Notes under the pieces: generated by a model
What the model was told of the DNA's origin: nothing
Seen by the model: only the letters and a program-made list of their open reading frames with translations
Databases searched by the model: none
In this document: piece by piece, positions 14,533 to 29,099 of the stretch
How the letters are laid out: each line of letters begins with the position of its first letter
Numbering within the stretch: position 1 is the stretch's first letter
Program-made: the position numbers and the translations under genes
From: an uncultured Gammaproteobacteria bacterium
Lineage (GTDB): Bacteria; Patescibacteriota; Patescibacteriia; Magasanikbacterales; GWA2-37-8
Direction of reading: 5' to 3'
Length of the DNA stretch: 47,591 nucleotides
Assembly: GCA_964516735.1 (NCBI GenBank)
Contig: CAZEYR010000003.1
Span: forward strand, 1-47,591

Positions 14533-17115
14533 ATGAGGGGTAAAATATTGGGACTGGCGACTTTGGGGATGGTCGGCAGTTTTTTTATTTATATTTTAGG
14601 AGCGGGGGCGGCACCTAATGACATTATAATCAATGAAATTGGGGCTTATGAGCCAACCGGATATGAATGGGTAGAGATCTGGAACAAAGGAACAGAGCCG
14701 GTAGACATAAAAGATTGGAAGTTTTATGAAAGTGACGGCCCAAACCACAAGAGTTTTGTCCTTAAAAGCGGTGTTGATTATCTTATAGATCAGGGAGAGT
14801 ATGCGGTAATTTGCCAAGACGATATTAAATTTTTAGCCAAATATTCCAATTTTAGTGGCACCTTATTAGACTCAGCGTGGAATGGGTTAAACGAAGCGGG
14901 TAAAGAAATCGGTCTAAACGATGCCAAGGGCAGCACAATTGAAAGATTTACTTATATTCCCGCTCCTAATTACTCTTTGCAAAGAAAAGATTCAAATTTT
15001 GTGGACTATACCAGTAATAATTGGCAAGAACATATTAGTGGGAATACAGTGGGGGCGATTAATGTGTTTGAGCAAACACCGTCAGATAGCGCAAATGATC
15101 AAGGTGGCATGGCTGACCAAGCCGAAGAGGTACTTAGTCAGCCGGTAGTGGAATCGGTAATAGAAAATGTGGAGCCGGTGGTGGAGTATAGAGACATTCA
15201 ATTAAATGAGATTGTAGTTAATCCTGAAGAAGGAAATGAGTGGGTGGAGTTGTATAATTTTGGTAATTTGGCCGCTGGTTTAAGTGGATGGTTGTTGTGT
15301 GATGCCAGAAATACCAATTCTACTTGTAAAAAAATAAATGGCGATATTGCCAAAGGAGAATGGTTAAAATTGGACTTGCACACCACTACTTATTTAAATA
15401 ATGATGGTGATAGTGTGATTTTAAAAAATCCATCTGGCACAGTGGTTGACCAAGTGGCTTACGATGAAGAAAAAATCGGATTGCCGGCTGCTGGGCAAAG
15501 TTTGGTTAGAAAAGAAAATGGCGGCTGGGCTATCTCCGAGACAATCACTCCGGGTGAGAAAAATATTATCACTGAAGAAGTGATAGGTGAAAATAATAAA
15601 GCAATTGCCGTTACTAGCACCGTAAAAACAATTAGCAAAACAAAAAATCAAATTGGCGATAAAAAAGACGAAGTAAATATCGTTTGGAAAGGAAAAATTC
15701 CAACACAGGGTGCGCCACAAGAAAAAATAACTTTTGATGTTTCTGCCTCGGCCGATCCGCGCGGCGGAAATATTTTTTATAACTGGGATTTTGGCGATGG
15801 GAGTAATTTGGATGGTGGGGTGGTAGAGCATGTTTTTGCTACTTCTGGTTTGTTTATGGTTAAGGTTACGGCCACCAGCACGGTTGGCACGGTAGACGAA
15901 AAAAGTTACAAAATTTCTATTGGAAAAGAATTAACAGTGAGTAATAATGGAGTGGTGATTACCGAAGTTTTACCCAATCCAAATGGAGATGACAGTGAGG
16001 AGTTTATTGAGCTATACAATAAAAGCAAGCAAACTATTGATGTCGCGGGTTGGTTGCTTAAATATGACGACAAGGATTATATTTTTCCAGAAAAAACCAT
16101 AATTCACGCTGATAGTTTTTTAATTTTTAAAAGAGCGGTTACTAAATTTAGTTTGAACAATCAGGGTGGAGAAATTGAACTTTTAACGCCGGATAAAAAT
16201 TTGGCGAATAAAATAGAATATGGTGTTGCTAAATCCGGACAGAGTCATAATTATTTTAATGAACAATTTTGGGTGAGTGAGCCAAACCCTAGAATTTTGT
16301 CGGTGTCAGTCGAGGCGGAATTTTTAAATGATAAAACAAGCAGCGGGGTAAACAAAGAATTTGCAGGGGCGAGTCAGACCGGCAGTTCATCCAAAACTTC
16401 CGGACAGTGGGTTAGGGTGACTGGGGTGGTGAGTGTGGTGCCAAAAATTTTTGGCACGCAGTATTTTTATATTTCTACTATGGATGATGCTTATCAGGTT
16501 TATCAATATAAAAAAGATTTTCCAGAATTAAAAAATGGCGATGAAATTTCGGTGCAAGGTAATTTGGGGTTAATCGGGCAAACGAAAAGAATAAAAATAA
16601 AAAGCCGGAATGATATAGACGTTTTGTCGACAGAAAACAATTTAGTGGCGGTAGAGATGACGCCGGAAGAAGTGGCGCAAGAGGAAACAATTTTGGGAAG
16701 TTTGGTGAAAATTAATGGGGAGATCACGGAGATTAAAAGCAATTATATGTATGTGGATGATGGGTCGGCAGAAATTGAGGTGTATTTCAAGCAAGGAGCG
16801 GAAATCGATAAGAAAAAATTTGCTGAGGGTCAGCTAGTAGAGGTGGTGGGAATAGTAGGAGAAAACAAAAATGAAAAACAAGTTTGGCCAAGATCTAACG
16901 AAGATGTGGTGGTAATGGGAGTGTCAGATGATTTATTAAAAAAACAAAATTTAAATAATGAGAATAAAGAGTTGCCAAAAAAGTATTTGGGAGTGGTGGG
17001 TGGTGGGGCGGCAATGATGCTTTTGGGATTTTTGGCTCGGGCGCGAGCAGGGATAATAAAAAACACCGCTCAAAAGGCGGCGATAATAATTGGTGGTTGG
17101 TTTAAGAAAAAATAA
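14533..17115 (+). CDS. cell-surface protein with three lamin-tail domains, a PKD domain, an OB-fold-like module and a C-terminal membrane anchor
   Basis: N-terminal signal/TM. Three segments fit the LTD pattern (I.INEI.......EWVE.YN....V.L.GW.L). The PKD-like stretch reads FDVSASADPRGG.IFYNWDFGDGS. A WVRVTGVV... segment resembles nuclease-associated OB folds. C-terminal hydrophobic helix plus KKK. Confidence 0.8.
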   Translation: MRGKILGLATLGMVGSFFIYILGAGAAPNDIIINEIGAYEPTGYEWVEIWNKGTEPVDIKDWKFYESDGPNHKSFVLKSGVDYLIDQGEYAVICQDDIKFLAKYSNFSGTLLDSAWNGLNEAGKEIGLNDAKGSTIERFTYIPAPNYSLQRKDSNFVDYTSNNWQEHISGNTVGAINVFEQTPSDSANDQGGMADQAEEVLSQPVVESVIENVEPVVEYRDIQLNEIVVNPEEGNEWVELYNFGNLAAGLSGWLLCDARNTNSTCKKINGDIAKGEWLKLDLHTTTYLNNDGDSVILKNPSGTVVDQVAYDEEKIGLPAAGQSLVRKENGGWAISETITPGEKNIITEEVIGENNKAIAVTSTVKTISKTKNQIGDKKDEVNIVWKGKIPTQGAPQEKITFDVSASADPRGGNIFYNWDFGDGSNLDGGVVEHVFATSGLFMVKVTATSTVGTVDEKSYKISIGKELTVSNNGVVITEVLPNPNGDDSEEFIELYNKSKQTIDVAGWLLKYDDKDYIFPEKTIIHADSFLIFKRAVTKFSLNNQGGEIELLTPDKNLANKIEYGVAKSGQSHNYFNEQFWVSEPNPRILSVSVEAEFLNDKTSSGVNKEFAGASQTGSSSKTSGQWVRVTGVVSVVPKIFGTQYFYISTMDDAYQVYQYKKDFPELKNGDEISVQGNLGLIGQTKRIKIKSRNDIDVLSTENNLVAVEMTPEEVAQEETILGSLVKINGEITEIKSNYMYVDDGSAEIEVYFKQGAEIDKKKFAEGQLVEVVGIVGENKNEKQVWPRSNEDVVVMGVSDDLLKKQNLNNENKELPKKYLGVVGGGAAMMLLGFLARARAGIIKNTAQKAAIIIGGWFKKK

Positions 17116-17639: not shown

Positions 17640-17729
17640 GGAAGGGTGCGAGAGCGGTTTAATCGAACAGTCTTGAAAACTGTCGTCCATGCAAGTGGAC
17701 CGTGGGTTCGAATCCCACCCCTTCCGCCA
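17640..17729 (+). tRNA. tRNA-Ser (anticodon TGA), CCA encoded
   Basis: Acceptor GGAAGGG/CCCTTCC, anticodon stem ACAGT/ACTGT with loop CTTGAAA, long variable arm, T-arm GTGGG TTCGAAT CCCAC, discriminator G then CCA. Confidence 0.9.
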
Positions 17730-17912: not shown

Positions 17913-18107
17913 ATGAACTACCCTGATATAAAAAACAAGCTTTTATATTGGATCCCGAAAATTCTAGCAATATTGTTAGGGGTATTTTTTATTATTTTTG
18001 GCGAACATGACGACAGTCCTGGATTGCAAGGAATAGGACTTATTCTAATAATTGCCACTGTTGTTGTAATCAAGGGAAAGAGAAAAAATAAACGCTATGA
18101 TTTTTGA
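17913..18107 (+). CDS. small two-helix membrane protein (64 aa)
   Basis: Two hydrophobic helices separated by EHDDSPG, with a basic tail. TATAAT (17899-17904) lies 8 nt upstream of the ATG. The ORF overlaps the next ORF by 11 nt. Confidence 0.5.
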   Translation: MNYPDIKNKLLYWIPKILAILLGVFFIIFGEHDDSPGLQGIGLILIIATVVVIKGKRKNKRYDF

Positions 18108-18576
18108 ACACCAATCAAAAAATAAAACGGTTTTGCTATTTATCTCGCTGATTATTTTGGCGTTAGGTATTTTTGTAATTTTCTATACCCCGGTTATTTT
18201 CCAAGAAGGCAATCCTTGGCCTCAAATTAAAGGTATTGCCCGATTAGTTTTTAGTAATAAAGACGTTGTAAAATTGGATATCGGAGAAAACAAATATATT
18301 ACTAAAGGCGACAATCCAGAGCTTATTAAGTCTTTCATGAAAGAAAAAGGCTACGATTTTACGGAACAAATGGGTTCCGGTTATTTTTTTAAATCACCAA
18401 CAGGAACCAGCGCAGTTGCCACTCACAGATATTACAGCCGGTTTTATTCGCTTTGGACTATTACGGAAAACATCAACAATCCCGTTGTTTGTAATCCATC
18501 TGGTAGAGAAATTCAACAGGACGGTCAAACCGAAATGTGTTTGGTAGACAATCGATCATACTCTAAAATAGTTTAA
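18097..18576 (+). CDS. N-terminally anchored hypothetical protein (159 aa)
   Basis: One N-terminal TM helix followed by a soluble domain with no recognised motif. The ORF overlaps the upstream ORF and lies 20 nt upstream of the giant ORF. Confidence 0.5.
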   Translation: MIFEHQSKNKTVLLFISLIILALGIFVIFYTPVIFQEGNPWPQIKGIARLVFSNKDVVKLDIGENKYITKGDNPELIKSFMKEKGYDFTEQMGSGYFFKSPTGTSAVATHRYYSRFYSLWTITENINNPVVCNPSGREIQQDGQTEMCLVDNRSYSKIV

Positions 18577-18596
18577 TTTATTAATTTTGTATTTTT

Positions 18597-21500
18597 ATGC
18601 GTGAATTTTTTGGTGAAAAAGGTGGTCGTAAACAAATTAAGGCAGCCGTTATTGAAGAGCAAATGGAAAATAATAATACAGAAGGTGAAATTAAAGCCCT
18701 AAGTCAGATACAAGAATTTTTTAATTCTTCTTCATATGAATACGATACAGACTACGATGATTATTATTTTAATATGAGAGATGTGATGAAAGGTCTTATT
18801 GAGTCTCACAAAATTGATCAAACTATTTTTCGTAGACCCGAAGCCCAAGAATTAGTAGACAATTATTGTTTGAGCCGGCTTCAATATCCTGAGTCGTTTC
18901 CCTTTCATGATTTAGCAGGTTTGTTTGAGGTTATCGGTTATAAACCAGACTTTAAACTCTCAAAATTTAAACCATTTATTGAAAGGATGTATAAAGATAA
19001 TTTATCGAAAAATTTTTTGAGTGGTGCCACCCAAGCAATTGCTTTTTTTGATGTCTTGCCTAAATTACCTCCAAAGTATATGGAAGGTCTGATCAAAAAA
19101 GTATTAAATCCATACTCAGAATATCAAGTGCACTGTAGAGATAGCAGGGAGGATGACGGTTTTTTTGAGTACCCCAATAAATTATCAAGCACATTGGATA
19201 TCTTAGAAAATTTTGTCCATAGTGTTTGTGCCGAAAAAGTGGATTTTACAAAATACAAAATAGAATTAAAAAATAGGTATATTGCAGAAATAAAAAATTA
19301 TAATGGAAATGACGAGATCTCCTTTATCACAGAACATACCGGCGTTAATATTGATTGGAAAGACCCAGATTTTGTAGCTGCCGTACAACAAAGTTATTTT
19401 ATATTGATGCGAGAGGATCGAGCCGAGTGGATTATAGATTTATTTGAACTGTCTGGTATTAATCCAGTTCTTCCAAATGTAGAAGATGAAATTTTTGTGA
19501 GAGCTGTTGCTCGTATGTCCGAAGATAAACAGAAAAAACTTTTGGATATCGTATTACCCGAAAATAATAAAAGGTCTGAATATCTCGCACAACGAGTAAA
19601 AAAACAAAATATTATAAACACGGTATTGTCTTGTAGTAATCCGGAGTGGTTGTCACGCTTTTTAGAAAAATTGATTGACAGCGGAGAGATGCCGTTGGAG
19701 AAATTAAATTTTTTACGAAAAAATAAAGAAGCTAAGCGTCACATTCAATCCATCTATGTTAATATTATTTTTATTAGCTTTCAGTATAACTCGAGTGCAA
19801 CAACAAGAGAAAATCTTTTACGATTTAAAAAGTTAACAGGGATATCATGGGAAGATGCTGATTTCTTTGATGTGAGCGAAAGTGAAGTTAAAGAAATTTT
19901 TAGTGGCATAAGCAGGATAGGACAATCGGACTATCATGCAGAGATGGCACAGAAGGCCCTAAACAGGATGGAAGAGCTTTTGAGTGGTTTTGATTACAAA
20001 CGAGTCTCCAACGAAATTCAGCAAGCCTATGCAAGTTTGTTGTTTGTTTATAATAAATACAACCGTGAAGAAATAGGTGGAAAGGAAATTGCGGAAAAGA
20101 TACAAAAGATTACCGGAATTAAACCAGATTCGCGACAAAAGGCTTTTAAAACTAAGTTTTTGGAAGAATCTGTTAAGACCATTGAGCGTCTTAATTTACA
20201 GAGCACAGAAGAAGGAATAAAAAGATTGGTTGCTATTGCCAAGAATGTTGGGGTTGATTTACCGTGGCGGGGTGAATTATCGAAGCCATTGGCCATCTTG
20301 TATGAGAGGTGTATTTTTCAGATAGAACATAGTGATTATAACGACAATGTCATAAAAGTATTAAGTTTCCTTATAAGTACTACCGGTGTTGATTTTCCAA
20401 AAACACCAGCAATGGAGCAAAATTTGAAGGACGTTTATAAAAAATATTATAAAAAAGGGCTAATAACTAATATAAAAGAATTAATTAAAATTACCAATAT
20501 ACAGCCTGTTTTTACAGCCTCGGAAAGTGAGGATATATATTTGTTTTGGATCCAAAAGGACAGTTTAGAAAAATTTGATGAATTTAAATTTGCGGGATTG
20601 TTATCAAGACACCCGGATTTTCAAGGTCCGTTAAAGAAAAAAATTATAGATAAAGTGTTTAAGACTGTAGGAATGCACAACGCAAAACAAAAGATTGCTG
20701 AACTTTCTAAAACAACCGGTATAGATTTTGATTTTCAAAAAGAATTACGCCCGCTTGTTTTGGATGAATTCTTTCGTTACATGGCAGACCATAGGGATAT
20801 TCAGTATCTTGTTGAAGTCTTTGGTTTTAAACCAGATTTTAAGGCGGAGTGTTATCAACGGACACAAGAATTGTTTGCGAGTATAGGGTTCAGAAAAATT
20901 GGCGAAATTAGTCATGTTGTAGGTGTGACGGGGATAGAACCGGATTTTTCTCTCCCCATCTTACTAAATAAATTGAAAGAACAATATGGGGTGATAATTG
21001 AGAATGGCGAATTTCACAATTTGAGGAAATTGGTTCTTTTATCCAAAATAGAACCAGATATTGTTAGGGAGTTTCGCCCTTTTTTGATCCGTAGATTGCT
21101 GACATACTTTTCGTCTCTTATTGTATCATATTCTGATCCGGTAAAAGGTTTGAGCAAAGAGCTTGAAGCATATCCTGCAGTAAAAATAAATTTTATTACA
21201 GAATTGCCCGAGGCGGTTGGTGGCGTCTATAAAAAGTGTTTGAGAGGGGCAAGGTTAGATTATGTCGATGGGCTGGAGGCTTTCACACATGTTATTCCTG
21301 ATTACAACGCGTGTAGGGAAGATGTGTTGGCCGGCTATGATAATTGTTTGAAAAATTTTTATAACTCAGAAGAATGGCGTGAAAGATTTTCTGAACTCCA
21401 AAAAAGAACAAATATAGAACCGTCATTTACAGAGATAGGCAAAGTGTTTATTCCGTTTATTAGAGATTGTAAAAATAATAATTTTACACAGGCAGAAAGC

Positions 21501-24104
21501 GTGGTGCGTCTAATTCGTCAGTCCAACAACTTTGTAAACAAAGAAAATTTTTGGTCAAAATATTTTGACCAAAATTGGGATGGTCAGGTGCCAAAAGAGT
21601 TTGTCAAATGGTATGAAAGTACCTTTCCCGAAAAGGCATCTTCTCTAAGTAGTGCCATAAAAAATAGTGCTGAAAAAAGATGTTTTGAATTTATTGCGGA
21701 AGAAAATTATGATTATGCGCAAAAAATAATTCAAGCAAACAAGCTTGTCTTAGATAAGGATAAGTTGTTAGAAAGTGCGATGAATTGTTTTTCTAAAGGC
21801 CTTTTGCCAGACGGTTTGTTGCAAATTTGTTTGCAGCAGAGAGTCCCATTAGAAGTTTCTCTTAAAAATGTTCAAAATACCAATTTTAATTTTAGAACAT
21901 CAGCCATGATCATCAACTCTTTTTTGCCTAAAAACAAAGAGGAGAGAAACGAAATCAAAGAAAATTTGATGAATAAAAGCGCACTACATCGAGCTATACC
22001 AAGATTGCTCGACTTACAAGGGATTTCTGCCAGAATGGATTTTTGTCCGTGGCAACAAAATCTTATGCCGCTTATTAAAACATTGGAGAAAGGGGGAGCG
22101 CTTTCTGATCGACAAGTTGATGGTCTGGTAGAATATGTTAGGCGTTTCGGTATGACAAATTTTCCGCTTTTGGCCAAAATCAACGTTGAATTAGCGGCAC
22201 TAAGATGTTCTCTCAAAAACAGAGAGGCGCACCCATATTCGTTCACCACGGCTGTTCAAAATACTTTAGAAAATTTTTGGAAAGCACACGGTTTAGCACA
22301 TTCAGTCGAAGAGATTAAAGAGCCACAAGCAATTGACAAAATATTGGATGAAATACAAACTAAAATAGAAGAATTAAAAGGCGCTATTCTTAATGATACT
22401 ATTCCACCGACTCTTGAGACGTCTGAATTGGACATGGAATTATTTAATGCTGTTGTGGCTAAAACTGGTTCATACGGAAATTTAAATGACCGCGGCTCTT
22501 TGATATTAAAATGGCGCAATCTTTGCAAGGTAGATTCTGACACCCGTGCTCCAAGTTATTTCCCAACAGGGGATAGAGCGCCAACATACCAATTGCAGTG
22601 CAAAAATAGGGAGTTATCTTTTGAGGACATTCTGGCGCAAGCTGAAGAGGCAAGCGATGATCCTATACAGCTAGAAAAGAGAAGGTTGTTGCTTTTAGAA
22701 TTGAGAAAACAAAAAGAAAAATTGTTAGCCAATCAACCTTTCCAAAAGTTTCTTTTACAGATGATGAATGCAGAAAATGTCGTCTCCGCCATGGAAAAAG
22801 AGCCCTGTGCCAACGAACTATTTTTGGAGCTGTCTGTAACAAGTTTACGCCAAAAACGAGCAGAAATGTTGATTAAGTTGGATAAAATAAGAAACACAAC
22901 AAATTTGAATCCAAAAGCATTGGAGGGAATGGAGAAAAGAATATCTGATACCGAAAAATTTATTAAAACGCTCGATAAGTTGGGAACCAAGGAGGGGCTT
23001 TACCAAATTATAGACGAAGAGGTGTCAAGACTTAGTAAAGCTGATGGTGTCCCGGAAAAAGAAGCCGACAGAAAGATTTTACAACAATATTTGGCGGCTT
23101 TTGACGAATTATCTCCTGCCGAAAATTTTGCCATGCTGTTGGAGGCTATGAGAATTCAAATTGGCAAAGAAGGGATGCTGGGTGAGTGTGAGAATTCGGC
23201 GAGCGCAATCATGATGGCCCTTCATAAAATTTTAGCCCCCGGACACTTTAATGCAATTAGGCAAGCCAGTGTGGCTTCACAAGGGGAAATTACTGAAGAC
23301 CTCATGAACGCGTGGAATTCTTTATTTGAAGATGAGGTGTTACAACATTTTGTTAATCCTGACGAGAAAAGATTTACAGCTTCCACACTTTCATATATTG
23401 AAAGCGCGTGGCGCCTAATTGGTAAAAGAAAGGCGTTGGCTGATAAAAATTTATCTGTAGATATTCGTCATGAATTTTATGACATAGTCAAAGCTGTCAA
23501 AAATATCAATGCTAATATTGATAAAATAGAAAATCCGCAAAAAGCCAGTTTAAAAGAAAATATATCAACTGTACCTGTAAAATTTTACGCCGTTCATGGT
23601 CTTGGTAGAATTTTTGCCGGAGATATTAGCAATGCTTGTTATGATAAGCAGAGAAACCTATTAGCAGAAAATAAATTTCAGAAAATTAACGCTGTGCTCA
23701 TGGCCCAGGAATCTAACAAAACTTTGCGATTACTTGGGGCTTTTTTAACGATTGAAGCTGATACTGAAGGTGGAAAAAAAGTATTAATTATTCGTGCTTT
23801 GAACCCAACTGACGCTGTGATAAAAAGAGAAATTAGGGCCGAAGAATTTGTTCGTTCTGCTGTGGAATATGTTACTGAAATCGCTCGAAATAATAATTTT
23901 GATGAAGCGCGTATTTGCGTTAGCAATCGTGGTGTGCACTCAACTAATATTCAAGAAGTCGCCGAGGAAATATATGCGCAAGTAAAAAAACAAAAACTTA
24001 TACCTGGTAGCCGCCTAGCGGATACTCCAGAGACTAATTTTAACGGTTATAACATTGCGAGAGAGGGGGAGACTTACGTTGTTTGGAGTAGAAATAAAAA
24101 TTAA
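18597..24104 (+). CDS. 1835-aa orphan protein with an N-terminal array of TGIxPDF-type helical repeats
   Basis: Uninterrupted 5.5-kb ORF with host-like composition. It has no TM or signal segment. At least 13 repeats of the motif h..hh.h[TS]G[IV].P[DE]F lie between residues ~110 and ~915. The C-terminal ~900 aa has no domain I recognise. Confidence 0.75.
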   Translation: MREFFGEKGGRKQIKAAVIEEQMENNNTEGEIKALSQIQEFFNSSSYEYDTDYDDYYFNMRDVMKGLIESHKIDQTIFRRPEAQELVDNYCLSRLQYPESFPFHDLAGLFEVIGYKPDFKLSKFKPFIERMYKDNLSKNFLSGATQAIAFFDVLPKLPPKYMEGLIKKVLNPYSEYQVHCRDSREDDGFFEYPNKLSSTLDILENFVHSVCAEKVDFTKYKIELKNRYIAEIKNYNGNDEISFITEHTGVNIDWKDPDFVAAVQQSYFILMREDRAEWIIDLFELSGINPVLPNVEDEIFVRAVARMSEDKQKKLLDIVLPENNKRSEYLAQRVKKQNIINTVLSCSNPEWLSRFLEKLIDSGEMPLEKLNFLRKNKEAKRHIQSIYVNIIFISFQYNSSATTRENLLRFKKLTGISWEDADFFDVSESEVKEIFSGISRIGQSDYHAEMAQKALNRMEELLSGFDYKRVSNEIQQAYASLLFVYNKYNREEIGGKEIAEKIQKITGIKPDSRQKAFKTKFLEESVKTIERLNLQSTEEGIKRLVAIAKNVGVDLPWRGELSKPLAILYERCIFQIEHSDYNDNVIKVLSFLISTTGVDFPKTPAMEQNLKDVYKKYYKKGLITNIKELIKITNIQPVFTASESEDIYLFWIQKDSLEKFDEFKFAGLLSRHPDFQGPLKKKIIDKVFKTVGMHNAKQKIAELSKTTGIDFDFQKELRPLVLDEFFRYMADHRDIQYLVEVFGFKPDFKAECYQRTQELFASIGFRKIGEISHVVGVTGIEPDFSLPILLNKLKEQYGVIIENGEFHNLRKLVLLSKIEPDIVREFRPFLIRRLLTYFSSLIVSYSDPVKGLSKELEAYPAVKINFITELPEAVGGVYKKCLRGARLDYVDGLEAFTHVIPDYNACREDVLAGYDNCLKNFYNSEEWRERFSELQKRTNIEPSFTEIGKVFIPFIRDCKNNNFTQAESVVRLIRQSNNFVNKENFWSKYFDQNWDGQVPKEFVKWYESTFPEKASSLSSAIKNSAEKRCFEFIAEENYDYAQKIIQANKLVLDKDKLLESAMNCFSKGLLPDGLLQICLQQRVPLEVSLKNVQNTNFNFRTSAMIINSFLPKNKEERNEIKENLMNKSALHRAIPRLLDLQGISARMDFCPWQQNLMPLIKTLEKGGALSDRQVDGLVEYVRRFGMTNFPLLAKINVELAALRCSLKNREAHPYSFTTAVQNTLENFWKAHGLAHSVEEIKEPQAIDKILDEIQTKIEELKGAILNDTIPPTLETSELDMELFNAVVAKTGSYGNLNDRGSLILKWRNLCKVDSDTRAPSYFPTGDRAPTYQLQCKNRELSFEDILAQAEEASDDPIQLEKRRLLLLELRKQKEKLLANQPFQKFLLQMMNAENVVSAMEKEPCANELFLELSVTSLRQKRAEMLIKLDKIRNTTNLNPKALEGMEKRISDTEKFIKTLDKLGTKEGLYQIIDEEVSRLSKADGVPEKEADRKILQQYLAAFDELSPAENFAMLLEAMRIQIGKEGMLGECENSASAIMMALHKILAPGHFNAIRQASVASQGEITEDLMNAWNSLFEDEVLQHFVNPDEKRFTASTLSYIESAWRLIGKRKALADKNLSVDIRHEFYDIVKAVKNINANIDKIENPQKASLKENISTVPVKFYAVHGLGRIFAGDISNACYDKQRNLLAENKFQKINAVLMAQESNKTLRLLGAFLTIEADTEGGKKVLIIRALNPTDAVIKREIRAEEFVRSAVEYVTEIARNNNFDEARICVSNRGVHSTNIQEVAEEIYAQVKKQKLIPGSRLADTPETNFNGYNIAREGETYVVWSRNKN

Positions 24105-24254: not shown

Positions 24255-24331
24255 CGGGTTGTAGCTCAGTTGGCTAGAGCGCGTGCATGGGGTGCATGAG
24301 GTCGCAGGTTCAAGTCCTGTCAGCCCGACCA
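24255..24331 (+). tRNA. tRNA-Pro (anticodon GGG), CCA encoded
   Basis: Acceptor CGGGTTG/CAGCCCG, anticodon stem CGTGC/GCATG with loop ATGGGGT, T-arm GCAGG TTCAAGT CCTGT, discriminator A then CCA. Confidence 0.85.
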
Positions 24332-24406
24332 GTTTAGGCCTAATAATTTTCTTATCAGTTGTGCTAATACACGAATGTGGTTTATTGTCTGGCCAGTCTA
24401 CGATTT

Positions 24407-24494
24407 GGAGAGGTGTCTGAGTGGTCGAAAGTACCGCTCTCGAAAAGCGGTGTCCTGCAAGGGACCGAGGGTTCGACTCCCTCCCTCTCCGCCA
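24407..24494 (+). tRNA. tRNA-Ser (anticodon CGA), CCA encoded
   Basis: Acceptor GGAGAGG/CCTCTCC, anticodon stem CCGCT/AGCGG with loop CTCGAAA, long variable arm, T-arm GAGGG TTCGACT CCCTC, G then CCA. Confidence 0.9.
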
Positions 24495-27980: not shown

Positions 27981-29099
27981 ATGCCAAAACAGCCCGATGT
28001 TTTAGAAAGAGAAGTTGGTAAAATGCGCGAGCGAATTTTGGTAGAGAAAGAAAAATTGGATCAGGTTTTAAATTTGTATCGGGAAGCTAATATTTATGTG
28101 GTAGGCGATGATTTAGGTGGTTCAGTGAGCGGGTATAAATATTTTGTTTATCCGTTTAAAGGGCTCACATTGGTTGATCATGGATTATATAAAATATTGG
28201 CTCAATATTTGGCTAAGATGATTGCCAAGGATACAGAAGTGCTTCTGACGGTTGAGGCGGATGGGATTGGAATTGCCACTTTGGTAGCGGCCGAATTAAA
28301 TTTACCTTTGGTAATTTGTAAATCTTTTCATTATAATGCGCCGTGTTTAGAGTTTGAACAAAAAACCGGTTATTATAATCGTTTAATGTATATGCCGAAG
28401 GTTATACAGGGGAAAAAAGTGGGGATTATTGATTGTTTGATTTCTACCGGCGGTACGATTAAAACTATGATTGAAAAAGCAATTAGTTTATCCGGGACCA
28501 CCATTAATGGCGTTTATTGCGTTAACAACAAGTCTAATTATCAGACGGGGTCGGAAAGCAAAACTGCTTTTGAAGGTTATCCCTATCGTTATTTGTTTGA
28601 TACCAAAATTAATGAGGGTGGGTCGGTGGAGTGTGTGATGTCTGACCATCTTAAAAGATTATTTTGGCGCGGAATTGACGGCATGTTTTATGAGATTGCA
28701 GAGCGCTTTTCTGAATTTTCCAACAGTTCAAAACATGGCTATCAGGTGGGGAGTGTTTTGGTAGATATGGCAAATTTTGAGATTTCGGCCTGGGGTTATC
28801 GTCGAGGCAATTTACACGCCGAACAAGACGCTTTGAGTATGTTGAGGGAGAATAGCCCGGATTGGCGGGAAAAGAAATATTCTATATATTCTACTTTAGA
28901 ACCTTGTAGTTGTAGGAATGGAGGTTTTACTCCTTGTGCGCATTTGATCGGTGAGACACCGCAGATAAAATGGGTGGTAATGGGAGAAAAAGATGTGTGG
29001 GACAAGAAAATCAACGGTGGGGGGATAAAACATCTTCTAGACAAGGGGAAAAATGTGCGGATTTTTAAAACCGATGAGCTCTACTTGGCTGGTGTTTAA
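27981..29099 (+). CDS. fusion protein: type I phosphoribosyltransferase domain + CMP/dCMP (RibD-like) zinc deaminase domain
   Basis: N-terminal half carries the PRPP loop KVGIIDCLISTGGT, preceded by TVEADGIGIA. C-terminal half carries HAEQDAL ... LEPCSCRNGGFTPCAHL (H-A-E ... PC-x(n)-C zinc site). Confidence 0.7.
   Translation: MPKQPDVLEREVGKMRERILVEKEKLDQVLNLYREANIYVVGDDLGGSVSGYKYFVYPFKGLTLVDHGLYKILAQYLAKMIAKDTEVLLTVEADGIGIATLVAAELNLPLVICKSFHYNAPCLEFEQKTGYYNRLMYMPKVIQGKKVGIIDCLISTGGTIKTMIEKAISLSGTTINGVYCVNNKSNYQTGSESKTAFEGYPYRYLFDTKINEGGSVECVMSDHLKRLFWRGIDGMFYEIAERFSEFSNSSKHGYQVGSVLVDMANFEISAWGYRRGNLHAEQDALSMLRENSPDWREKKYSIYSTLEPCSCRNGGFTPCAHLIGETPQIKWVVMGEKDVWDKKINGGGIKHLLDKGKNVRIFKTDELYLAGV

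Follow-up and report, generated by a model that had tools for sequence, protein, structure and literature searches.

Introduction

Patescibacteria have tiny genomes and are thought to be mostly episymbiotic. The described systems closest to the one reported here are of two kinds. In the GNAT fold, the α1-α2 region forms the acceptor-substrate site, and the end of β4 with the loop following it, the start of α4 and the last strand form the coenzyme A (CoA) site; in ICL2, acetyl-CoA is bound by a GNAT-like C-terminal domain. The other kind is the degenerate two-helix repeat: the octotricopeptide repeat (OPR) of Chlamydomonas Tbc2 measures 38-40 amino acids (aa), carries a quasi-conserved 'PPPEW' near the repeat end and has L, G and P in common with the pentatricopeptide repeat (PPR) (PMC2174033), and the heptatricopeptide repeat (HPR) of apicomplexan and FASTK proteins measures 37 aa (PMC6212722). 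Here we analyze a giant gene on the plus strand of contig CAZEYR010000003.1, at 18597..24104 of a stretch of 47,591 nucleotides (nt) that we refer to as the window. In the original prediction, made from the letters of the window, its product was an orphan protein built on a TGIxPDF helical-repeat array reminiscent of PPRs. By its sequence, the giant protein is a member of a large unnamed family specific to Patescibacteria, also known as the candidate phyla radiation (CPR).

Results

The giant gene and its family

The predicted open reading frame (ORF) of 1835 aa plus stop codon was confirmed exactly, with an ATG start. The gene is real and intact in near-identical strains. Two further public assemblies contain near-identical full-length copies: P0001, which differs by 5 aa, and P0151, which is 1838 aa long. 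A near-identical strain from an unrelated sequencing run (L031:898-6405) lies 9 nt (5 aa) apart from the window at 18597-24104, and an attempt at a ratio of non-synonymous to synonymous substitution rates on this pair (9 nt differences, 3 synonymous, 5 non-synonymous) was uninformative. Over the 500 nt downstream of the gene the same two sequences diverge strongly, with 76 mismatches when compared without gaps, pointing to a rearrangement or an indel directly after it. A hydropathy scan (maximum Kyte-Doolittle(19) = 1.05) agreed with the expectation that the protein has no signal peptide or transmembrane helix, and we take it to be soluble.

When the whole protein was searched with a word index, we recovered the protein itself and a single 1660-aa relative, P0002, which resembles it only in the C-terminal half, with 34% identity in the last 190 aa and 26% in aa 1132-1311. 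With only one relative at hand the protein seemed an orphan, until we ran an exhaustive HMMER profile search of the C-terminal half against 1.84 billion cluster representatives (50% identity clusters). This search matched 671 clusters at E<=1e-3, 528 at <=1e-10 and 197 at <=1e-30, so the family comprises at least 671 clusters and the orphan label has to be abandoned. Nearly all family proteins are 700-2500 aa long, and the match is located at their extreme C-terminus. In a local iteration, the whole module of ~716 aa (aa ~1120-1835) was present in all 150 of the 150 best matches; its alignments with closer relatives run end to end at 27-33% identity over ~750 aa, and the family as a whole has diverged to ~20-25% identity. 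A word-index search with an alignment of the C-terminal domain brought up 10 short proteins or fragments, labelled 'hypothetical', without any new architecture. In the neighborhood of P0002 there is a second giant protein of 1683 aa, with a protein-kinase domain, encoded 1.7 kb away on the minus strand (L001:16724-21775).

A scan of one genome per species yielded 19 loci, which belong to Uhrbacteria, Magasanikbacteria, Liptonbacteria, the 'Patescibacteria group' or metagenome-assembled genomes (MAGs) titled 'uncultured Gammaproteobacteria'. Seven carrier MAGs bear this last title (third-party annotation, TPA; L009, L011, L012, L014, L017, L019 and L020) and the other carriers are Patescibacteria; the title is probably placeholder or mislabelled taxonomy, or possibly arose from co-binning of host and symbiont. 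Searches of the giant protein and its relatives against Pfam, NCBIfam, PADLOC, PHROGs and PDB sequences gave nothing significant, so the C-terminal half indeed matches nothing known in these resources, and we found no description of the family in the literature. An anti-phage defence or phage protein family was considered and rejected, since no PADLOC or PHROGs model matches.

A degenerate array of two-helix repeats

The front end of the subfamily to which the window protein belongs is a predicted solenoid of ~37-aa two-helix units joined by the linker G-I-x-P-D-W/F, and the window copy of it is degenerate and irregularly spaced. Motif, self-comparison, profile and AlphaFold2 (AF2) evidence place this zone at aa ~84-950 (18846..21446, plus strand), with 14 units, each predicted to comprise two helices, A and B, separated by a turn and followed by a linker bearing [TS]-G-[IV]-x-P-[DE]-[FWY]. 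From the N-terminus, and all on the plus strand, the motif copies are EVIGYKPDF (18927..18953), EHTGVNIDWKDPDF (19332..19373), ELSGINPVL (19446..19472), KLTGISWEDADF (19830..19865), KITGIKPDS (20106..20132), KNVGVDLPW (20241..20267), STTGVDFPK (20376..20402), KITNIQPVF (20487..20513), KTTGIDFDF (20709..20735), EVFGFKPDF (20814..20840), VTGIEPDF (20925..20948), LSKIEPDI (21039..21062), AFTHVIPDY (21279..21305) and RTNIEPSF (21405..21428). All fourteen fall in the AF2 register, and all except AFTHVIPDY come from the motif scan; copies 2, 3, 5, 8, 9, 12 and 13 are in addition recovered by a profile built from relatives only, and copies 8, 9 and 14 by leave-one-out. Copy 11, VTGIEPDF, scored 3.0 with the relatives-only profile, slightly under the best shuffle (3.1). 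The 13 copies listed in the original prediction were therefore all present, at coordinates that were off by <=9 nt, and the fourteenth, AFTHVIPDY (aa 895-903), which that list lacked, was revealed by the relatives-only profile.

The anchor residue of the 13 listed copies, the G of TGI, is found at aa 114, 249, 287, 415, 507, 552, 597, 634, 708, 743, 779, 817 and 939, which gives spacings of 135, 38, 128, 92, 45, 45, 37, 74, 35, 36, 38 and 122 aa; the 35-37 aa quoted for the best-ordered stretch were thus about right (35/36/38 as measured). Motif regular expressions matched 5-9 times where 0.1-1.0 matches were expected from 2000 shuffles. In a de novo BLOSUM62 diagonal self-comparison of aa 1-1000, all the top pairs join motif regions, with a top score of 53 against a shuffle maximum of 41. 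A leave-one-out profile made from the window copies only recovered 3 of them strongly and 3 weakly and missed 7, which shows how degenerate the copies are outside the short motif. At the DNA level no repeats, tandem ones included, were found.

Near-perfect tandem arrays of the same motif are present in the relatives P0007, P0011, P0012, P0023 and P0038, with the consensus KEVVQERYKKYLSSGDLDDIEKLQELSGIEPDWQGEL, which can be summarized as ..LxELSGIEPDWQGELKxxVxxxY.., and the period of the regular arrays in P0011, P0007, P0023 and P0012 is 37 aa (range 37-40). A hidden Markov model (HMM) built from the 13 window copies recognises 13 units in P0011, 11 in P0023 and 8 in P0007, and, in the opposite direction, an HMM built only from the units of the relatives scores 8 window units above the best of 200 shuffles. 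With aa 1-1125 as a phmmer query, aa 610-835 align to the array of P0007 with a domain E of 7e-19, and P0011 and P0012 are reached at 1e-12 and 3e-6. The motif copies of the window are true bihelical repeats, homologous to the regular 37-aa arrays of the relatives; shuffles, the profile of the relatives, phmmer and the AF2 register agree that TGIxPDF marks real repeat units, as had been proposed. A pattern scan of JGI metagenome DNA for two G-I-x-P-D-W exactly 37 codons apart found four stretches, two of them with the C-terminal module and the partner gene described below and two being N-terminal fragments of P0007-like genes. A word-index search with a 74-aa double repeat unit gave no matches even though relatives with perfect repeats exist, which we take to be a limit of the tool and not evidence.

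We modelled aa 1-1200 with AF2 from an alignment of 26 subfamily relatives. The model is all-alpha (69% helix), with a mean predicted local distance difference test score (pLDDT) of 69 and values >80 over most of aa 740-1200. At 14 of the 14 copies the predicted register is identical: helix A, a turn of 2-7 residues and helix B, which stops one residue before the anchor G, after which a loop of 8-13 residues containing I-x-P-D-F enters the next helix A. Because the register is the same at all copies, the motifs align as repeat units in the model, and the motif would correspond to a helix cap plus the inter-repeat linker. In line with the proposed helical-repeat array, the first ~1100 aa are predicted to be all-alpha, and every motif occupies the close of a helix B together with the loop between repeats. 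Foldseek against PDB matched this model to long alpha-solenoids of every kind, such as the IFT-A TPR (E 1.7e-4), SKI3, transportins, karyopherins, CRM1 and ATR, and also to PPR10 and designed PPRs (probability 0.97-0.98, E 0.01-0.015; 4m57 0.98, 5i9f 0.98, 5i9g 0.97). For all these solenoid matches the template modelling scores (TM-scores) are only 0.1-0.2, and the predicted structure supports the designation 'alpha-solenoid' with no specific tie to PPR.

The likeness to PPRs did not extend to family membership. An hmmscan of the whole protein against Pfam at E<=10 found no PPR, TPR or other repeat model and returned only DUF4070 (E 0.14); in relatives with near-perfect repeats, no PPR or TPR family was found at E<=0.1, and the sub-threshold ANAPC3 match (E 0.08) in one of them is outside the repeats. 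With no match to PPR (PF01535, PF13041, PF13812) or TPR and a period of 37 rather than 35 aa, membership of the PPR family is not supported, and since no existing Pfam repeat model matches it, the suggestion of a distinct repeat family holds. TPR, Sel1, HEAT and ARM identities were rejected on the same ground, as no Pfam repeat profile matched the protein or the relatives with regular arrays.

The repeat arrays are acidic, with an isoelectric point (pI) of 6.4 in the window protein and 4.8-5.7 in relatives; across the family, the median pI of the N-terminal regions is 5.2 and only 2 of 129 exceed pI 8. Such arrays argue against a nucleic-acid-binding surface and for protein recognition, so the nucleic-acid-binding function considered in the original prediction is disfavoured (pI 4.8-6.4). 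Other family members carry N-terminal repeats with periods of 28-29, 34 or 37/38 aa on the same C-terminal module, which makes the front end the variable part of the family.

The conserved core and its GNAT-like domain

In the alignments, the C-terminal module forms the core that the family conserves; in the predicted structure it ends in a confidently modelled domain of GNAT-like topology. Its first part is a conserved all-alpha module of ~530 aa (aa 1120-1654; 21954..23558, plus strand), delimited by the family alignment and with pLDDT mostly >90 in AF2. It contains the motifs R.E[FH][CD]PW (FCPW at 22041-22052), [YF]V..FG..N.P and D.IP...E.S.L.MELFNA, as well as a near-invariant His1584 (23346-23348). 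Its second part is an alpha/beta domain of ~180 aa (aa 1655-1835; 23559..24101, plus strand), supported by AF2, Foldseek and conservation, whose invariant or near-invariant residues are G1668, G1675-D1676, C1681 (23637-23639), G1714, R1733-A-L-N1736-P1737 (23793-23807), N1784 and E1812-T-N-F-N-G-Y1818 (24030-24050). In 31 diverse members, G1668, D1676, C1681, A1690, G1714, R1733, A1734, N1736, P1737, A1763, N1784, T1813, N1816 and W1830 are invariant. The stretches that never vary are G-D..x-A-C in α1-α2, R-A-x-N-P at the end of β4, S/T-N-R at the start of α4 and E-T-N-F-N-x-Y before the last strand.

The core (aa 1120-1835) was modelled with AF2 from 50 family sequences, with a mean pLDDT of 92.1, a predicted TM-score (pTM) of 0.65 and 570 of 716 residues at pLDDT >= 90. 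In this model, DSSP assigns E539-547, H550-571 (three short helices), E578-587, E590-604, E609-618, H629-646, E651-655, H667-679 and E707-712, with β2-β3-β4 long and antiparallel, and the predicted order of elements, β1-α1-α2-β2-β3-β4-α3-β5-α4-β6 (DSSP E-H-H-E-E-E-H-E-H-E), is that of GNATs. The high-probability local matches of the core in Foldseek are all GNATs: 3fb3 (probability 0.94, TMt 0.45, where TMt is the TM-score normalised to target length), 3eo4 (0.93, 0.47), Rv1916 (8g8k, 0.92), GNA1 (3t90, 0.84), Naa50 (6z00, 0.82) and NatC (6yga, TMt 0.54). Over the GNATs as a group, probabilities are 0.82-0.94 and TMt 0.39-0.54, at a root-mean-square deviation (rmsd) of 3.8-6.9 Å over 97-184 columns. 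The best E-values of the core (0.03-0.17) belong to M. tuberculosis ICL2, which was deposited with acetyl-CoA. We regard the domain as GNAT-like in its predicted fold, with membership of the superfamily not established.

A macro domain had been suggested by a weak profile match to alphavirus nsP3 (E 0.09, 68 columns; in 1 of 31 members, E 0.12). We abandoned this lead: none of the 50 best Foldseek matches listed is a macro domain, and the three long antiparallel strands are consistent with a GNAT.

A partner gene and a shared protein start

In all the close relatives that were checked, a partner gene of ~456-470 aa lies directly beside the giant gene (P0006, the P0007-like gene, P0011, P0012, P0015, P0023 and loci L004, L008, L012, L016 and L019). 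It is usually directly downstream, once overlapping by 4 nt, and is upstream in L002 and L005. Partner genes were located at L021:12922-14328, L022:13366-14766, L029:11610-12980, L027:3191-4588, L003:10379-11788 and L004:10373-11782, and the start of another at L030:5931-6011. The partner has no Pfam or PDB-sequence match, and its conserved motifs are HHRS, KGxGF, GYDxLG, GMRxE, H.FLHMGN(8)VDLD and KDxRD. A weak profile match to the catalytic loop of MAP kinases (E 0.34), together with H.FLHMGN(8)VDLD, is only a lead to a possible kinase-like fold that would lack the catalytic Asp.

The giant proteins of the subfamily and the partner proteins both begin with M(x1-3)NPF(E) (L003, L004, L005, L008, L021 and L026-L030), and of the 13 ORFs that open with MxNPF in 385 kb of related DNA, 10 are members of these two families. 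The start could serve both as a common tag for targeting, export or interaction. In the window protein it is degenerate, MREFFGEK..., and part of the N-terminal peptide MREFFGEKGGRKQIKAAVIEE (18597..18659, plus strand), which is a degenerate form of the family start M(x1-3)NPF(E)...R..(K/R)AI.

About 650 nt upstream of P0006 there is a reverse transcriptase (RVT_1) with a bAvd gene (L022:5915-7346, also L023:5756-7185), an arrangement like that of a diversity-generating retroelement (DGR), and beside these DGR-like genes are a TrwB/TraG-like ATPase and a Replic_Relax protein. P0006 was rejected as a DGR target, as an A-wildcard scan of L022 found no pair of template and variable repeats.

Genomic surroundings of the giant gene

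The window is a chromosomal housekeeping stretch near the origin, with rnpA, dnaA, dnaN, a class A penicillin-binding protein, recA, ftsK, rpoB and trigger factor. The giant gene lies between tRNA-Ser(tga) (17640-17729) and tRNA-Pro(ggg)/tRNA-Ser(cga) (24255-24494), and 20 nt upstream of it lies a 159-aa ORF whose N-terminal stretch is hydrophobic and which matches no family. In a profile of 18001-24000, the GC content drops to 0.34-0.38 in the giant gene and two small upstream ORFs for membrane proteins, from 0.38-0.43 in the flanking DNA. We found neither an integrase nor att-like direct repeats between the flanking tRNAs, and no secretion-system genes nearby in the window. A genomic-island origin of the giant gene, to which the low GC between tRNAs might point, is unproven without such an integrase or att-like repeats.

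Two other genes of the window have unusual architectures. Just upstream of the tRNA, at 14533-17115 (plus strand), an 860-aa protein combines a PKD domain, three lamin-tail domains and an OB-fold (tRNA_anti-codon) domain, an unusual surface-type arrangement. At 27981-29099 (plus strand), a 372-aa fusion joins a phosphoribosyltransferase to a cytidine/deoxycytidylate-deaminase zinc-binding domain, which also matches an AID/APOBEC-like model.

Discussion

The reading of the giant protein that we favour, and to which we give slightly less than an even chance, is a composite one, in which the GNAT-like domain would bind an acyl-CoA-type ligand or transfer an acyl group, the acidic solenoid would recognise a protein target and the partner would cooperate where it is present. 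Acyl-CoA-type ligand binding or acyl transfer is predicted for the GNAT-like domain, with Cys1681 at its centre; the variable acidic solenoid may be a protein-binding arm that selects the target or the partner; and in most close relatives the giant protein would act with the adjacent ~467-aa protein bearing the same MxNPF tag. Doubt in this composite reading mostly concerns catalysis as opposed to mere ligand binding, and the target. A bolder version of it, which we consider rather unlikely, is a two-protein system specific to Patescibacteria, composed of a solenoid-guided, Cys-dependent enzyme with a divergent GNAT-like domain and a kinase-like partner lacking the catalytic Asp, in which the shared MxNPF would route both proteins to the same machinery or compartment. 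In that version GIxPDW units would form the first 'heptatricopeptide-type' repeat family of bacteria, one evolved to recognise protein and not RNA and exchanged for other repeats among members.

Several observations weigh against the composite reading, most of them touching the GNAT-like domain. In Foldseek the core has no match at E<=1e-3, and its GNAT matches have E 0.03-0.7. None of 31 domain sequences matches any of the Acetyltransf models of Pfam at E<=10, searching PDB sequences by profile with the C-terminal domain brought up no GNAT chains, and hhalign against E. coli RimI returned a probability of 0.3%; in that alignment the β4-loop-α3-β5 of the family falls on motif A of RimI (residues 70-105), not significantly. 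The canonical pyrophosphate loop, Q/R-x-x-G-x-G/A, is absent, and in its place there is R-A-[LN]-N-P-x-[ED]-x-[LVF], a longer loop with no conserved Gly. The apparent clustering of the invariant residues at a GNAT-type cleft is suggested by topology only. As for the solenoid, the N-terminal model is of only moderate confidence, falling below pLDDT 50 at aa ~136-294 and in parts of aa ~574-673. Neither the 47.6-kb window contig nor locus L001 contains the partner gene, so cooperation cannot be required in cis. Finally, every name available for members of the family is 'hypothetical protein'.

We weighed this reading against three others. An array that reads a nucleic-acid sequence, RNA or other, in the manner of PPR, OPR or HPR, with a C-terminal module that acts on it, is suggested by the ~37-aa two-helix unit ending in L...G-h-x-P-[DE]-[WF], given that PPR and OPR share L, G and P and that OPR has P..EW (PMC2174033), by the 37-aa length of HPR repeats (PMC6212722), by the natural and designed PPR structures among the higher-probability Foldseek matches and by the tRNA genes on both sides of the giant gene. 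We nevertheless hold it to be very unlikely. HEAT and TPR solenoids match equally well or better in Foldseek, where TM-scores are 0.1-0.2, and no repeat model matches the protein at E<=10 or its regular-repeat relatives at E<=0.1. The arrays are acidic (pI 4.8-6.4, with 2 of 129 N-terminal regions above pI 8), there is no RAP, nuclease or other RNA-related domain, and other members swap the array for unrelated 28-34-aa repeats while keeping the C-terminal module unchanged.

The protein could also be a non-catalytic scaffold or sensor, with helical parts that organise a larger complex and a GNAT-like domain that binds acyl-CoA or another metabolite as a regulatory ligand, like the C-terminal domain of ICL2. 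The best Foldseek E-values, which are to ICL2 and Rv1916, the missing canonical GNAT motif A and the fact that ~90% of the protein is helical scaffold would all fit; however, the invariant Cys, Asp, Arg and two Asn in a family at ~20-25% identity are more typical of an active site, even if they do not exclude a sensor, and we judge this reading unlikely. It is less probable still that the protein is an effector that an episymbiotic CPR bacterium exports or directs at its host, with MxNPF as its export or targeting tag and a solenoid that recognises host proteins, a proposal that is compatible with the composite reading. The MxNPF start is common to two otherwise unrelated families and almost absent elsewhere (10 of 13 in 385 kb), highly variable N-terminal arrays are joined to a constant C-terminus, one relative is located beside conjugation-type genes and a DGR-like reverse transcriptase, and the giant gene, between tRNA genes, has a GC of 0.34-0.38, below the 0.38-0.43 of its surroundings. 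On the other hand, the protein has no signal peptide or transmembrane helix and its own tag is degenerate, no integrase or att-like direct repeats were found, and the window is a housekeeping region (dnaA, dnaN, recA, ftsK, rpoB) with no secretion-system genes near the giant gene.

The supposed orphan is now a defined family with domain boundaries and a confident core model, for which acyl-CoA is the candidate class of ligand and the adjacent protein the candidate partner, and its key invariant residues are C1681, D1676, R1733, N1736 and N1784. Each gene of the family costs 3-7.5 kb (~1000-2500 aa at full length) in tiny genomes, and this cost, together with conservation across at least 671 clusters, makes it likely that the family matters to the biology of Patescibacteria. 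That bacteria have a bihelical repeat of 37 aa whose helix end is PPR/OPR-like bears on the origin and diversification of the 'tricopeptide' repeats, and a PPR/OPR-like motif need not imply RNA binding.

Comparison with known systems

The repeat resembles PPR in the end of its helix B, ...L...G-h-x-P-D, and in its predicted form, a two-helix hairpin that would stack as an alpha-solenoid. It differs from the 35-aa PPR in its length of 37 aa (in the window, tight spacings are 35/36/38 and the others range from 37 up to 135), in the aromatic W/F after P-D, in the conserved G-E-L that opens helix A, in the acidity of its arrays and in the confinement of the family to Patescibacteria. It resembles OPR and HPR, degenerate bihelical repeats of 37-40 aa, by published description and in motif and length only; by those descriptions the unit lies at least as near to OPR as to PPR, and near to HPR too, its motif L..L[ST]G-I-x-P-D-W looking more like the OPR end than the PPR end. 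OPR and HPR proteins, however, are eukaryotic organellar RNA binders that often have a RAP domain, whereas in the giant protein there is no such domain, the array is acidic and the C-terminal module is another one. Globally, Foldseek matches the N-terminal model best to HEAT/TPR scaffolds such as karyopherins, IFT-A and SKI3, which are long, irregular, protein-binding alpha-solenoids; as TM-scores are only 0.1-0.14 and there is no sequence or profile relation, the likeness is to 'alpha-solenoid' only.

For the C-terminal domain, the closest described proteins are GNATs (3FB3 of T. brucei, 3EO4 of M. jannaschii, 6Z00, 3T90 and ICL2/Rv1916), with which it shares the same predicted order of elements, at pLDDT >90. 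In the model, the most conserved residues of the giant protein lie at the end of β4, the start of α4 and in α1-α2, the regions of the CoA and acceptor sites in GNATs. Unlike GNATs, it is predicted to have a longer β4-α3 loop and an invariant Cys in α2, it lacks sequence-profile similarity to them, and it is always fused to a preceding helical module of ~530 aa that occurs nowhere else. Neither the resources nor the literature searched describe the repeat family, this helical module, the particular GNAT-like variant or the partner pairing; the parts of which they are made, a helical-hairpin alpha-solenoid and a GNAT-like fold, are of known kinds.

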